Shown here: one piece after another, positions 77-43,205 of the stretch
How the letters are laid out: each line of letters starts with the position of its first letter
Numbering within the stretch: the stretch's first letter is position 1
IMG/VR virus record: IMGVR_UViG_3300044957_000820
Span: 1 to 43,426 of that record
Source: a virus
Lineage: Duplodnaviria > Caudoviricetes
Length of the DNA: 43,426 nucleotides
Strand: one strand, 5' to 3'
Notes under the pieces: generated by a model
Told to the model about the DNA's origin: nothing
The model's input: the letters and a program-made list of their open reading frames with translations, nothing else
The model's database searches: none
Position numbers and translations under genes: made by a program

Positions 77-142
77 GAGACCTTGGCCGTCGCGACGTGC
101 GACGTTTCCAGCAGCACCACGCGGAGGTGGTCTCGTGCTGCC
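77..142 (-). ncRNA. HDV-like self-cleaving ribozyme (copy A)
   Basis: Minus strand reads GGCAGC-AC-GAGACC-ACC-UCCGCGU-GGU-GCUGCU-GG-AAA-CGUCGC-ACGUC-GCGACG-GCCAA-GGUCUC. This maps to P1 (6 bp, G1.U wobble), P2, P3, L3 with UCC, P1.1 GG, P4 and J4/2 with the catalytic C, as in the HDV antigenomic ribozyme. Confidence 0.85.
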
Positions 143-593: not shown

Positions 594-662
594 GAGATCG
601 TTGGTCGCAGCGACGTGCTGCGCTTCCAGGCGACACCACGTGGAGGTGATCTCGTGTCGCCC
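594..662 (-). ncRNA. HDV-like self-cleaving ribozyme (copy B)
   Basis: Minus strand reads GGGCGAC-AC-GAGAUC-ACC-UCCACGU-GGU-GUCGCCU-GG-AAG-CGCAGC-ACGUC-GCUGCG-ACCAAC-GAUCUC. Canonical 7-bp P1 with G1.U; compensatory changes versus copy A in P1, P2 and P4. Confidence 0.9.
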
Positions 663-25273: not shown

Positions 25274-25647
25274 TGGCGCGCGCTGCCTCAAAGGCTCCGG
25301 CCACAGCCGTTCTCGCCGGCGACCCCGAGGGTAACCTCGTCGAGATCACCCAGACGGCCACGCCTGGGAACCAGCTCTACGAGGTGCAGGCCGTTGGGGC
25401 TGTCCGCGACCGCGTCCGCATCTACGCGACGAACAACTCCAGCGCGGCTGTCGATCTGACGATCGAGTGGATGGGCACGACCAACGCCGACAAGATCGTC
25501 GTTAGCGTACCCCCGAAGAACGGGCTCGAACTCGTGGCTGAGGGCTGGGTGCGTAACGCCAGCACTGGCTCGAAGGCCACGATCGCGGCGTTCGCCGCAT
25601 CGGCGAGTGTGATCAACGTGCACGTGGTTGCGGAGAGCGAGCGATGA
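25273..25647 (+). CDS. small beta-rich hypothetical protein
   Basis: 124 aa, translationally coupled on both sides. Confidence 0.65.
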   Translation: MARAASKAPATAVLAGDPEGNLVEITQTATPGNQLYEVQAVGAVRDRVRIYATNNSSAAVDLTIEWMGTTNADKIVVSVPPKNGLELVAEGWVRNASTGSKATIAAFAASASVINVHVVAESER

Positions 25648-26996
25648 CGAAGGTCGTGATCATCTGCGCGGACGACCTGGGCCGCGAGCAGTTCCAGAGC
25701 TACGGCATCGGCGGGATCACTGGCCCCCTGGGCGTCGCGTACCCGGACCTGAGCGAGATCGAGGCGCTGAAGACGAACGGGGTCCGCCTTACGAACTTCT
25801 ACGTGCACGCCTTCTGCTCGCCAACGCGCGCCTCCGAGATCACCGGGCTGTGGCCGGGGAACAGCGGTGTCGGCAACATCATCGAGAACAACAACACGGC
25901 CCCGCTTGTCGAGTCCAATCTGTGCCTCCCCGAGCTTCTGGGCCGCCTGAATCCAGGCATCCGGCGCGCGACGATCGGCAAACTGCACCTCTCGAACCAG
26001 CAGAACGGCGACACCGATGCCTATCGGCGCATGGGGTTCGAGTTCTGGAACGGGTCGCTTCGCAATCTGCCGATCGTGACCAACAGCTACACGACCTACA
26101 GCTACTACGTGAACGGCGAGCTGCGCCGTGCGTACGACTACTGGGCGACACGGAAAACGACTGACGACGCGATTCGCTACCTGCGGAAGTACGCCAACGA
26201 TGACGTGTACTTGCGCGTCTGCTACAACGCGCCGCACGAGCCGTTCCAGCGCCCTCCGGCCGGCACGTACGACAGCGTCACGTGGGTCTGTCCTGACGAG
26301 TACCCCGTGAACCAGACTGTGACCGCGACGATCAGGCCGTACTTCAAGGCCATGTGCGAGAACCTGAGCTATGAGATCGGGCGGCTGCTTGCTGAGATCG
26401 ACTTCGGCGACACACTTGTCTTCTTCTTCGCCGACAACGGAACAGCGACGATCCCCGTTGCCGGCGAGTACAACGGTGTTTCGGGTGCCTATTGGGACGG
26501 GCGAACCAAGCGCACCGTCTATGATGGCGGCATTCGCATCCCAGCATTCGCGCGCGGCTACGGAATCAACAACACGAATCGTGACATCACTCAGCTCGTG
26601 TCTGTGGTCGACCTTTTCCCGACGATCCTCGACCTGTTCGGCCTAAGTCTCCCCGAGACAGCCAGAATCGATGGGCAGAGCTTCACTCATCTGCTCGAGG
26701 ACGCGCCCGGCACCGACCGCCAGTACCTCCTGAGCGAGATCTTTGGCCCAGAGAATGGGCCGAACGCCGGAACGACCGACGGGCGCAGGGCCGTGCGCAG
26801 CGCCACGCACAAGCTGATCTGGATCGACGAAGCCATCGCGGATGGTCCGTCGGAGTTCTACAACCTGAACAGCGACCCCATGGAGTTGACGAACCTGCTC
26901 CCTGGGCCGCTTTCTCCGACGGACCTCGCCGAGTACAACGCGATGATCAACTGGCTGTCTACGCAGTGGTGGGCGAGTCAAGCAGGGCAGACCTGA
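25644..26996 (+). CDS. Cys-type (formylglycine-dependent) sulfatase
   Basis: ADDLG, CSPTRASEITG (CxPxR), GKLHL, YNAPHEP, FADNG, K..YDGGIRIP, VDLFPT, DGQSF, EFYNLNSDPMELTNL. Confidence 0.93.
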   Translation: MTKVVIICADDLGREQFQSYGIGGITGPLGVAYPDLSEIEALKTNGVRLTNFYVHAFCSPTRASEITGLWPGNSGVGNIIENNNTAPLVESNLCLPELLGRLNPGIRRATIGKLHLSNQQNGDTDAYRRMGFEFWNGSLRNLPIVTNSYTTYSYYVNGELRRAYDYWATRKTTDDAIRYLRKYANDDVYLRVCYNAPHEPFQRPPAGTYDSVTWVCPDEYPVNQTVTATIRPYFKAMCENLSYEIGRLLAEIDFGDTLVFFFADNGTATIPVAGEYNGVSGAYWDGRTKRTVYDGGIRIPAFARGYGINNTNRDITQLVSVVDLFPTILDLFGLSLPETARIDGQSFTHLLEDAPGTDRQYLLSEIFGPENGPNAGTTDGRRAVRSATHKLIWIDEAIADGPSEFYNLNSDPMELTNLLPGPLSPTDLAEYNAMINWLSTQWWASQAGQT

Positions 26997-38593: not shown

Positions 38594-40957
38594 ATGACGC
38601 TTCTGTCTGAAGGTCTGTCCGCGCTCAGGCGCGGTTGGCACATCATCGCTCTCGACGGGAAGAAGCCTCGAGCGCAGGGCTGGCAGCGATCGCCTCCACC
38701 GAGCGAGGCCGTGGTCGAGGCGTGGGCGCGCCAGGGGAACCTCGGCGTGTGCACGGGGCACGGCTTCATCGTGGTCGACATCGACCCAGGCGCTGACACG
38801 AGCGCACTCGATCTGCCCGAGACCGTCGAGGCTCGCACGGGCCGCGGTGGCCGCCACCTGTACTACCGCTGCGACGAGCGCATGGCGAACAGCGTCGGCC
38901 GCATAGCCGAGCACGTGGACGTGCGCGGCACGGGCGGGCAGGTCGTTCTGCCGGGCAGCGTGCACCCCGACACCGGCGAGGTGTACGCGTGGCTCGTGCA
39001 TCCTGACGAGCGCGAGATGGCCGACGCGCCCGCGTGGCTCGCGGAGGTCGCGCGCCCGAAGGAGCCGAGGGCGGTCGCCTCGATCTCAGGCGGCAACCTC
39101 GACCGCTGGGCAGCCGTCGCGATCGAGGCCGAGTTGAGATCCGTTCGCAACGCGCGCGAGGGCACGCGGAACAACACGCTGAACCGAGCTGCGTTCAACC
39201 TCGGGCAGATCGTCGAGTCCGCGCGCCTGGATCCGCAGGAGCTTCTCGACGAGCTGCTCCAGGCGGCCGACGCGTGCGGCCTGGGCGCGGCTGAGTCGCG
39301 CGCCACGGCGATCAGCGGCGTGCGCGCCGGCATGCAGTCGCCGCGCTCGAACGCGACGCGGCCACGCGCGCCTGACCGCGTGGTGCCGGAAGAAGGCGAC
39401 ATCCCCGAGGTGCTCGTCCCTGGCACGCACGTCACCGACCAGGGCGAGTTCATCGAGGTGAGCGACGAGGAGTTCGCCTCGGCTGCGATCAGCGCGATCG
39501 AGTACACGGGCCACGAGAACTTCTTCCGCCGCGGCGGCGTCGTGCTGGAGATGGACCTCACGAGCGGCGTCGTGTACTTGCCGGACGAGTACGACGTGCG
39601 ACTCTTGATCTCGCGCTACGTGCGCTTCGCGCGCTGGCGTGCAGTGAAGGCAGGCGGCGGAGCCATCGTGCACGAGAAGCAGCGCGTGCCTGGAAGCACG
39701 GAGTACTCGCGTCTGATTCGCAGGCACATGCGCACGCACCCGAACGTGCGCGATCTCGAGGTCTTCGCGCCGCACCCGATGTACGTCGCGAACGACGGCA
39801 ACGAGGTCATGCGCGCGCGGCCTGGGTACGACTGGCAGACGCGCGTGTACTGCACCGACTACACCGAGCAGGACGGCGAGACGTGCGACGTTGACGAGTT
39901 CCTGTGCGACTTCCCGTTCGCGACCGAGAGCGACCGCGACCAGTTCGTCGGCCTCATGCTCACGCCGATCGTGCGCCAGCTGATCGATGGCCCAGTGCCG
40001 ATGCACCTGATCACGAGCACGATCGAGCGCACAGGCAAGACGAAGCTCGCGGAGGAGGTGCTCGGTGGTCTGCTCCTGGGTCGCCCGACGCCGGCCGCGC
40101 AGCTCGGCGGCAACGAGGAGGAGATCGAGAAGCGCATCCTCGCGCACCTGCTCGCTGGACCGCCGATCCTGCATCTCGACAACCTCGCCGAGCACCTCGA
40201 CTCCGGCGCGCTCGCGTCGCTGCTCACGTCGAACGAGTGGAAGGGCCGCATGCTCGGGCGCTCCGAGGTCGTCTCGATCCCGAACCGGACGGTGATCGTC
40301 GGCACCGGGAACAACGTCCGGGCCTCGGCCGAGCTGGCGAAGCGCATCGTGCCGATCCGCCTGGAGCCCCGGTACGTGCGCCCGGACCTGCGGCGCGACT
40401 TCCGGCACCCGGACCTGCGCCGGCACGTGGCGCGCTCGCGCGCGGCCGTGCTGCGCACGCTGTGCGGCTGGGTCGACTCCTGGCTCAGGGCCGAGCGGCC
40501 CACGTCAGAGCGCGTCCTGGGCGGCTACGAGGCGTGGTGCCGGGTCGTCGGCGGGATCATGGAGTGCGCCGGCCGCACGGCGTGGCTCGCATCTCGGGAG
40601 TCCTGGGTCTCGAAAGCGAACATCGAAGGCGTCGACCTCCAGCGGGTGGTGCAGCTCTGGTGGGACCAGCACGGCACGTCGCGTACGCGTCCCAGGGAGC
40701 TTCTGGGCCTCTGCGAGGGCGGGGAGGTCTGGTTGGACCTCTGGGAGCGCGCGCGCACGCCAGAGGGGCGCACGGTGGCCCTGGGACGGCGCCTGTCCCG
40801 GTACTTCGGCCGGGAGTTCAACGTGCTCGACGACCTGGGGCGCACGGTGCGGGTGAAGCTCAACGACGCGATGCCCCAGGGCTCGCGGGTCATGTGGCTG
40901 GAGCCGGTCGCGCCCGGTGGGGGAGAAACCCCCACCGACGAAGAGCACCACCACTGA
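38594..40957 (+). CDS. bifunctional DNA primase-polymerase fused to a helicase-like ATPase
   Basis: NLGVCTG..VVDID, TGRGGRHLYY, DVRGTGGQVVLPGSVHP, EGTRNNTL (PriCT), RTGKTKL Walker A, HLDN, TGNN. Confidence 0.92.
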   Translation: MTLLSEGLSALRRGWHIIALDGKKPRAQGWQRSPPPSEAVVEAWARQGNLGVCTGHGFIVVDIDPGADTSALDLPETVEARTGRGGRHLYYRCDERMANSVGRIAEHVDVRGTGGQVVLPGSVHPDTGEVYAWLVHPDEREMADAPAWLAEVARPKEPRAVASISGGNLDRWAAVAIEAELRSVRNAREGTRNNTLNRAAFNLGQIVESARLDPQELLDELLQAADACGLGAAESRATAISGVRAGMQSPRSNATRPRAPDRVVPEEGDIPEVLVPGTHVTDQGEFIEVSDEEFASAAISAIEYTGHENFFRRGGVVLEMDLTSGVVYLPDEYDVRLLISRYVRFARWRAVKAGGGAIVHEKQRVPGSTEYSRLIRRHMRTHPNVRDLEVFAPHPMYVANDGNEVMRARPGYDWQTRVYCTDYTEQDGETCDVDEFLCDFPFATESDRDQFVGLMLTPIVRQLIDGPVPMHLITSTIERTGKTKLAEEVLGGLLLGRPTPAAQLGGNEEEIEKRILAHLLAGPPILHLDNLAEHLDSGALASLLTSNEWKGRMLGRSEVVSIPNRTVIVGTGNNVRASAELAKRIVPIRLEPRYVRPDLRRDFRHPDLRRHVARSRAAVLRTLCGWVDSWLRAERPTSERVLGGYEAWCRVVGGIMECAGRTAWLASRESWVSKANIEGVDLQRVVQLWWDQHGTSRTRPRELLGLCEGGEVWLDLWERARTPEGRTVALGRRLSRYFGREFNVLDDLGRTVRVKLNDAMPQGSRVMWLEPVAPGGGETPTDEEHHH

Positions 40958-41102
40958 AGAATCGCGTGTTTCCCTCGGCTTTTTCAGCGTTCAGTGGGGG
41001 AGTGGGGGTTTTTTTTTCTCCTTACGTGAAGAAAAAAAAAGAAGAGCCCTCACGTCACATATAAGGGGCCTGGATTTACCCCCACCACCCCCACTCCCCC
41101 AC
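40915..41102. repeat. putative replication origin: GTGGGGG iteron-like inverted repeats around a T9/A9 core
   Basis: Perfect 15-bp inverted repeat 40994-41008 / 41088-41102; seven GTGGGGG/CCCCCAC copies; the most AT-rich patch seen in the window. Confidence 0.65.
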
Positions 41103-41104
41103 CG

Positions 41105-41166
41105 GACACGAAGCCGCCCGCCCCCTGGCCCGCGGCGAGCGCGGGGTCGGGAGCGGGCGGCGTGTC
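41105..41166. terminator. long GC hairpin where rightward and leftward transcription converge
   Basis: GACACG..GCCGCCCGC...GCGGGCGGCGTGTC. Confidence 0.45.
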
Positions 41167-42431: not shown

Positions 42432-42685
42432 GGCTTCCAGTTCAGCCGTGCGAGTTCGCGCGGCGCAGGCGTTCCGGCGGGGTGATGGATGAAGAAGCCG
42501 CAGTCGTCGAGGGAGCTGCCGGGCGCGACCTCGTAGACGATGCAGGCGGTCTTGGAGGAGATCGTCGTGCCGAGCTTCTTCAGCTTGGCACGCGCTTCCT
42601 CGAACGTGTCGGCTCGCGACCACGTGCGGTCGCTGGTGATGAGCATGACTTCGCGGTCGGGCTGGAGGATGAACTCGATCTTCAC
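42428..42685 (-). CDS. hypothetical early protein
   Basis: GTG at 42685 with GGAGG RBS. Confidence 0.6.
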   Translation of the reverse strand: MKIEFILQPDREVMLITSDRTWSRADTFEEARAKLKKLGTTISSKTACIVYEVAPGSSLDDCGFFIHHPAGTPAPRELARLNWKP

Positions 42686-42912
42686 GCGAGTGCCTCCACC
42701 TGCTTGCGGTTGAGGACGGCGACCTGCGTGTTCCGCTTGTATCGGAACTGAAGCGACTGCCACGAGCGGTCGTTCAGCAGGTCGGTGATGTTCGCGTAGG
42801 TCGTGCCGGACGGCGAGTTGAGGACGAAGTCCTTCTTCGCTTTGAAGTCGGCGAGGAGTGCCTTCTTCGAGGTGTAGTCACGGCCGTAGGCCGGGGTGAA
42901 GACGAGATGCAT
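42682..42912 (-). CDS. small phage early protein (PAYGRDY motif)
   Basis: MHLVFTPAYGRDYTSKKALLADFKAKKDF; AAGGA upstream. Confidence 0.7.
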   Translation of the reverse strand: MHLVFTPAYGRDYTSKKALLADFKAKKDFVLNSPSGTTYANITDLLNDRSWQSLQFRYKRNTQVAVLNRKQVEALA

Positions 42913-42925
42913 GTGTGTGTCCTTT

Positions 42926-42992
42926 TCTTCAGGGCGCACTGGCGCGCCGACGCCGACGCTGGAGTGCGCCGGCGTTTCGCCGCTCGCGCGGC
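42926..42992 (-). ncRNA. hammerhead-ribozyme-like element with atypical permutation
   Basis: GCCGC-GCGA-GCGGC, GAAA, 10-bp stem III, GUC site, stem I GGCGC/GCGCC, CUGAAGA. Confidence 0.55.
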
Positions 42993-43004
42993 GAACCCAC
43001 ACAG

Positions 43005-43205
43005 TCAGAGACGCTCGATGGCGTTGTTCGCGATGTAGTGCGTGACGGGCTCGTCGACCTCGATCACGCGAACGTCGCGCACTGCAGTCCACCGCATGGC
43101 GAGGTCGACTACGTAGCGGTCGGCCTCTTCTCTCGTGGCAAAGCGCAGTGAGTTGCCGACCCAGTTGTCTGAGCCGAAGACCTGGACCTCGGGCTTGAAG
43201 CTCAC
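43005..43205 (-). CDS. small phage early protein
   Basis: GTG at 43205 with GGAGG; SFKPEV...WVGNSLRFATREEA. Confidence 0.7.
   Translation of the reverse strand: MSFKPEVQVFGSDNWVGNSLRFATREEADRYVVDLAMRWTAVRDVRVIEVDEPVTHYIANNAIERL

Follow-up and report, generated by a model that had tools for sequence, protein, structure and literature searches.

The question raised by this locus is whether a hammerhead ribozyme can have its chain opened between A9 and the first pair of stem II and still be a ribozyme. Eckert et al. 2023 (PMC10085705) defined six orders of three blocks, in which CUGAnGA and its adjacent paired bases are assumed to be inseparable; according to that article, no alignment with more than 1-2 nt inserted there is known. 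The window (the whole stretch of DNA analysed, 43,426 nucleotides) represents most of a phage genome, with terminase, virion proteins, helicases and primase. On its minus strand, direct reading of positions 42992-42926 gives in succession a hairpin, GAAA, stem III, GUC, stem I and CUGAAGA. The initial annotation had listed the hairpins, GAAA, GUC and CUGAAGA on this strand; all are present where it placed them, the core is intact and the cleavage site predicted here (42949/42948) agrees with the one it gave. It had also described the chain as broken next to stem II, and stem II indeed exists only as a closed hairpin (pair probability about 1.0), with the break between A9 and G10.1. The flanking UGUGUG/CACACA pairing that it noticed runs on in register past one G.A mismatch into GUUC/GGAC, which makes a helix of 10 pairs (P4) abutting the hairpin (P2). 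The element is located between the upstream stop codon and the CA-run and ATG of the next small gene, with 26 nt from the in-frame stop of the upstream gene to G12 and 13 nt from A9 to the downstream start codon. No PHROG or Pfam match was obtained for the upstream 66-aa gene nor for the downstream 76-aa gene.

Table 1. Parts of the element, its neighbouring genes and the HDV-like ribozymes of the same operon (positions in the window unless a record is named).
Feature	Position	Strand	Description and basis
Upstream gene	43005..43205	-	66 aa, function unassigned; UGA stop at 43007-43005, 1 nt short of P4
P4, 5' strand	42993..43003	-	Final UUC (42995-42993) can alternatively pair with G12-A13-A14; from sequence and folding
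Stem II (P2), closed hairpin	42979..42992	-	5 bp, GCGA (GNRA) loop, first pair G10.1-C11.1; pair probability ~1.0
G12 A13 A14 A15.1 (GAAA)	42975..42978	-	From sequence and Rfam alignment
Stem III hairpin	42975-42966/42959-42950	-	10 bp including one G.U; begins A15.1-U16.1, C15.2-G16.2; pair probability 0.97
U16.1 and C17	42950 and 42949	-	From sequence
Predicted scissile bond after C17 (GUC)	42949/42948	-	Expected from the hammerhead consensus
Stem I hairpin	42948-42944/42937-42933	-	16 nt, 5 bp and a possible sixth G.U; C at 1.7; pair probability 0.81
C3 U4 G5 A6 A7 G8 A9 (CUGAAGA)	42926..42932	-	From sequence
AAA linker, A9 to P4	42923..42925	-	From sequence; also opens the Shine-Dalgarno-like AAAGGA (42925-42920); same tail in the family members L153 and L068
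P4, 3' strand	42912..42922	-	GGA, CA-run and A of the downstream AUG
Downstream gene	42682..42912	-	76 aa, function unassigned; 3 relatives, 41-73% identity
HDV-like ribozyme 1	594..662	-	All helices; precedes CA-run and ATG 578; Rfam drz-agam-1 17.3 bits, below gathering
HDV-like ribozyme 2	77..142	-	All helices; precedes CA-run and ATG 65; HDV-F-prausnitzii 27.2 bits, E 0.014, below gathering
HDV-like ribozyme 3	L004 6829-6898 (in the end-to-start gap)		Precedes CA-run/ATG; Rfam HDV_ribozyme 35.8 bits, E 0.001, below gathering

By every sequence test the element would be classed as hammerhead-like. It contains the full core, including the A15.1-U16.1 pair and H17, the stems I and III, and an R10.1-Y11.1 pair next to G12 (G42992-C42979) that comes from the 5' hairpin. 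With type II (RF02276) it shares the G-S-C order and the closed stems I and III; it departs from this type by its stem II, which is not open, and by a score below the 37-bit gathering score. It departs from the whole class by the link between A9 and 10.1, which is direct or of 1-2 nt in the rule as given in PMC10085705, and where AAA and P4 intervene here. The locus had been announced as a permutation other than types I, II and III: the block order is that of type II, and the part of this claim that holds is the break within the block made of CUGAnGA and stem II. The accompanying statement that natural hammerheads are open only at stems I, II or III is too narrow, non-circular permutations being already described in PMC10085705. 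The novelty is thus the interruption of the block and not the block order. Searches of open-licence papers brought up none that describes a helix at A9/G10.1, and the main text of Forgia 2023 (PMC10162972) gave no match for extra helices. Descriptor and covariance searches for hammerheads presuppose the unity of CUGAnGA and stem II (the element obtains 23 of 37 bits in Rfam), so that searches built on an inseparable block would miss forms like this one. A linker of three bases has about the length required across the end of an A-form helix.

The sequence of the element is not an assembly error. It is identical in an IMG/VR record, and contigs from three of the four lake runs examined span it entirely, one of them with an extra CA repeat. 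Among 400 dinucleotide shuffles of the whole window, a single core with stems III and I of at least 5 bp was detected, and none had the hairpin or the fourth helix. The folding z of the RNA 43004-42912 is -3.44 (1 of 200 shuffles equally stable); in a wider frame of 121 nt it is -1.73 and 13 of 200 shuffles are as stable. The Rfam scan of the window returned no match at gathering score, and Hammerhead_II (RF02276) matches the element below threshold (23.1 bits against 37, E 0.17). With a model of the phage type II family described below, built on a 36-member alignment, the element is the top match of the window (20.3 bits, E 0.0008), stem II being gapped. It is hardly credible that GC-rich hairpins and a ribosome-binding site fell into this arrangement by chance: the score below the Rfam gathering value and a GC content of 64-66% would be compatible with it, and the absence of such an arrangement from the 400 shuffles, the first rank under the family model and the slot shared with three HDV-like ribozymes all speak against it. 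When the GC-rich 26-nt leader was shuffled 20,000 times, a 5-bp hairpin ending at C11.1 was frequent (4,298 shuffles, 21%) and a 10-pair helix with the tail was rare (0.7%). In post hoc tests, both features occurred together in 4 of the 20,000 shuffles, and the hairpin with a helix of at least 6 pairs in 749. Only the 5' half of P4 is informative in this respect, because its CACACA half is the usual pre-ATG motif of the phage hammerhead family.

This family is a large group of phage type II hammerheads (loci L042-L166), found from stop codon to CA-run/ATG with the layout stop codon, ribozyme core, CA-run and ATG. Cleaved messages may share this CA-run ahead of the ATG as a translation signal. 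A pattern including the CA-run tail yielded 66 distinct cores, 63 of which form a usual stem II of 3-5 pairs, either directly after A9 or with one base in between; such an extra base between A9 and G10.1 occurs in some family members. The remaining three cores comprise the present element, one type III and one mismatched member. We aligned 36 members of our own choice, mostly with short stem I hairpins: the alignment comes out 98.4% paired, with 186 two-sided changes, and none of 500 shuffles is as high. The first pair of stem II is G-C in all 36, as in the hairpin of the element. The element also shares with the family the succession of stop, core, AAAGGA/CA-run and ATG, C11.1 and the C15.2-G16.2 pair. 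It differs by a longer leader from stop to G12, this distance being 2-21 nt in the 59 canonical members (of 63) where an in-frame stop allowed it to be measured, and by a shorter distance from A9 to the start (19-44 nt in 60 of the 63), which follows from the missing 3' strand of stem II. With 0-2 inserted bases, the strand after A9 offers no stem II pair, and with 3-4 inserted bases one pair. Moreover, C1.7 and G replace the U1.7 and A of the family, and there is no A before a 4-bp stem II. All 33 members whose stem I hairpin has 17 nt carry U1.7 together with this A, and U1.7 occurs in 42 of 63 overall. A contact between U1.7 and the last A of loop II is known as a tertiary interaction (PMC11875169); the U1.7 and A of the family presumably form it.

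Some loci close to this family have irregular stems. L133, in which 13 nt are inserted ahead of CUGAAGA and the 3' strand of stem II is missing, and L162, which has a mismatch in stem II, are apparently damaged family members. L133 was rejected as a second example of the present form, having the short leader of the family and a hairpin probability of 0.006. L159 (minus strand, near 113) was rejected as it is a type III; there, the CA-run before the ATG is the 3' strand of stem III and would also cover a start region. In the type II core of L031, A9 is followed by no stem II pair, and loop I has a long match to the 3' tail past an AAA linker. Finally, one phage locus of 8162 nt (L486) carries eight hammerheads, six of type I and two of type II.

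The comparison with the family suggests a second reading, in which the element is a dead or nearly dead type II ribozyme: a family member would have lost the 6-9 nt holding the 3' stem II strand, and an 8-bp UUC...GAA hairpin with the UGUGUG/CACACA helix would now be mRNA structure only, serving for example in translational coupling. We regard this as possible, though doubtful. The tail after A9 is that of L153 and L068 minus the stem II strand, the family model aligns the element with stem II gapped at the score given above, the U1.7/A signature is lost, and damaged members exist (L133, L162). Template switching could yield a perfect 8-bp inverted repeat, which we count in favour of such an origin. 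A simple deletion, however, leaves unexplained a leader longer than all 59 measured, as well as the hairpin together with the in-register helix (4 of 20,000 shuffles). The unpaired CUGAAGA and GUC are also intact despite so much change in the flanks; with both flanks rebuilt around an unpaired core that is conserved, selection for catalysis is easier to invoke than decay, even if damaged relatives such as L133 and L162 are found.

A third reading keeps the element within type II as a form with insertions, in which P4 (by G42922-C42993) or a lone G42922-C42979 pair stacks on the core and the 5' hairpin is a bystander. Rfam does pair C42979 with G42922 past a 3-nt insertion, and the end pair of P4 is also G-C. 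Type II ribozymes with a one-pair stem II are described as active in PMC3088659, where they depend on a pseudoknot between loop I and the 3' tail, and, in the account of PMC13725137, cleavage persists in viral hammerheads whose helix II is short or absent, at rates of about 0.01 and 0.001 per minute. This reading is nevertheless improbable: C42979 is locked in the hairpin with a probability of 1.0, P4 as stem II requires a 14-nt insertion between 11.1 and G12, and loop I has no partner in the 3' tail for the pseudoknot on which the one-pair ribozymes of PMC3088659 rely.

Competing folds had been proposed for this RNA. The pairing of UUC with GAA is confirmed with a probability of 0.92; the other one, GGCGCACU/AGUGCGCC, stays below 0.01. 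The computed energies of the core-free fold (-51.4 kcal/mol) and of the blocked fold (-51.6 kcal/mol) are equivalent, these nearest-neighbour energies leaving out the tertiary folding of the hammerhead core. The two folds differ only in the partner of UUC, which is GGA in P4 when the core is free and G12-A13-A14 when it is blocked. The blocked fold is the minimum-energy structure, a further point for a dead remnant; a low active fraction is, however, also normal in canonical members. The active-compatible fraction of the ensemble is 0.040 for the element, against a median of 0.029 for 62 canonical members (37 of them are lower), and since this fraction resembles that of the canonical family, the UUC/GAA alternative does not show that the element is inactive.

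In the short RNA, pairing takes up both the CA-run and the A of the AUG, whose probabilities of being unpaired are 0.01 and 0.12, respectively. When a ribosome footprint is blocked in the folding, either on the stop of the upstream gene or on the start of the downstream gene, P4 opens, the AUG is freed and the active fraction drops to 0.003-0.0006. By the same folding, a terminating ribosome would open P4 and free the AUG without any cleavage, as a dead remnant would only need to do. In naked RNA, the probability of P4 falls to 0.001-0.002 once 250-500 nt of flanking coding sequence are co-folded. The 5' cleavage piece folded alone adopts the UUC/GAA hairpin, with six P4 pairs left. Concerning tertiary contacts, stem II carries a GNRA loop, position 1.7 is a C, and covariation is absent for a singleton. 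The sequence of the 3' tail contains no pseudoknot partner for loop I, and the only candidate contact seen is a 4-bp match of loop I to an ACUG overlapping the end of P4. The loss of P4 with long flanks and the lack of an identified tertiary contact indicate that the cleavage rate is likely low.

On balance, we incline to the view that the element is a working but slow four-way-junction hammerhead ribozyme. The closed 5-bp hairpin would serve as stem II, and the AAA linker with P4 would stand in for the A9-G10.1 bond. The folding predictions place P4 over the downstream start, and a ribosome standing either on the stop of the upstream gene or on the start of the 76-aa gene would open P4 and shift the RNA to the blocked fold. 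A naked, untranslated transcript would close P4 and then cut after C42949. After cutting, the products would be joined by P4 only; the 5' piece would revert to the UUC/GAA hairpin and the six remaining pairs would melt. The 76-aa gene would then end on a separate mRNA that begins with a 5'-OH and a hairpin and has its start exposed. This is the transcript-splitting job expected of the three HDV-like ribozymes of the operon, with cutting coupled to translation in addition. The most far-reaching form of the proposal is that of a natural hammerhead opened at A9-G10.1, with the ribosome-binding region of the next gene in the extra helix, in which translation gates cleavage, cleavage starts translation and the published rule of inseparability is broken; to this combination we give tentative credence only.

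The operon provides the context of this proposal. An identical IMG/VR record joins the end of the window to its start over a gap of 1,389 nt, which makes a circular or terminally redundant phage genome of about 44.8 kb likely and brings the minus-strand small genes of both ends into one run. This run is presumably transcribed as such, and a promoter scan found no sigma-70-like site on the operon strand. The four starts of the operon having a CA-run and ATG are each preceded by a ribozyme-like element, namely three HDV-like elements and the hammerhead, and the remark of the initial annotation that the hammerhead occupies the same kind of position as HDV-like elements is borne out. All three HDV-like elements display P1, P2, P3, P1.1 and P4. 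The remaining five of the nine CA-runs found have no ATG directly after them. An inhibitory leader common to the HDV-like elements was considered and received no clear support from folding. A stretch of about 145 nt (L004 6684-6828), flanked by a stop codon and by the third HDV-like ribozyme, is strongly folded into several hairpins, with no Rfam match. Lake water metagenomes contain near-identical DNA (among the 16 listed runs, 10 have at least half of the words), and no RNA dataset is among these listed runs. Contigs of runs X8 and X11 have one extra CA repeat at 42911/42912 before the ATG, which lengthens the spacer by 2 nt. Elsewhere in the window, 25644-26996 (plus strand) encodes a sulfatase (Pfam PF00884, E 6e-32), followed by a 617-aa opposite-strand ORF without family match. 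The region 40950-41160 is AT-rich, with facing T- and A-runs, at the meeting point of the rightward and leftward gene sets; it is likely a two-way terminator region.

A second example of this form was sought with several patterns. Among 634 loci, reduced to 129 distinct cores having both stems of at least 5 bp, the hairpin and the fourth helix together are found only in the present element, and four of the 129 cores have no stem II of 2 pairs after A9. The viral pattern with AAA after A9 (whole collection, 29 stretches) recovered the element itself and one pseudoknotted type II. No second example was obtained with the viral pattern with a CA-run tail (at least 125 loci, 45 of 64 parts), with the viral pattern with A after A9 and a CA-run (whole collection, 45 stretches), with its metagenome version (at least 119 loci, 45 of 64 parts, flanks of 80), with the GTDB pattern with an AAAGG tail (104 loci) or with the HDV-plus-CA-run pattern (6 loci). 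The viral pattern with a 5-bp GNRA stem II and U7 (at least 121 loci in 54 of 64 parts, 65 distinct cores) gave the 5-bp hairpin in none. Among the best 80 of 152 loci of the upstream gene family, hammerheads occur in five, and this form only in the element itself. Since C11.1, C15.2 and either a tail or a loop are fixed in these exact patterns, other versions of the topology could escape them. Searches with the downstream protein and the terminase for close phage relatives returned identical records only; the nearest non-identical relatives of the neighbouring genes reach at best 73% identity (on 43% of the length), 68% and 55%. The lake contigs contain no substitution in the element, only the extra CA repeat. 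The covariance search for homologues of the same topology, envisaged in the initial annotation, thus found no second example. With a singleton (1 of 129) that has no variation, there is no covariation for P2 or P4, and this is the main weakness of the case.

If the element cleaves, it would provide a new opening point for hammerheads, a new arm for the control elements of engineers and a testable case for the role of ribozymes between phage genes, a question called open in PMC6765202 and PMC6155905. If it does not cleave, it would be a remodelled remnant of an ordinary family.

Among known hammerheads, the element is nearest to the phage and prophage type II ribozymes (RF02276) of Perreault et al. 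2011 (PMC3088659). In the description given there, these have the same order of GAAA, stem III, UH, stem I and CUGAnGA, they are intergenic and clustered with other ribozymes among small phage genes, and clustered phage hammerheads cut polycistronic RNA. The element differs from them by having no stem II strand after A9 and no pseudoknot between loop I and the 3' tail, and by its fourth helix. The non-circular permutations SGC, CSG and GCS, as presented in PMC10085705, are likewise natural rewirings with an unchanged core, and GCS-1, which cleaved incompletely, is also a singleton without covariation. In contrast to the element, they keep their blocks whole and are pseudoknotted, whereas the element splits Block C at A9/10.1 within a nested fold of G-S-C order. 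The (+) hammerhead of CChMVd tolerates an additional A at the A9-G10.1 bond (De la Pena and Flores 2001, cited in PMC3705267); the bond concerned is the same, with one base there and three bases plus an open 10-pair helix in the element. Additional helices have been reported in hammerheads (PMC13725137, citing Weinberg et al. 2015). In the element, the additional helix would lie at the A9-G10.1 break. The variant of Weinberg et al. 2015 reportedly combines a stem II of one pair with an additional hairpin in stem III. The engineered hammerhead switches of Wieland and Hartig 2008 are said to hide the Shine-Dalgarno sequence until cleavage. Cleavage of the element would likewise free a ribosome-binding site; their switches are engineered on stem I, whereas the element is natural and its switch is predicted on the fourth helix.
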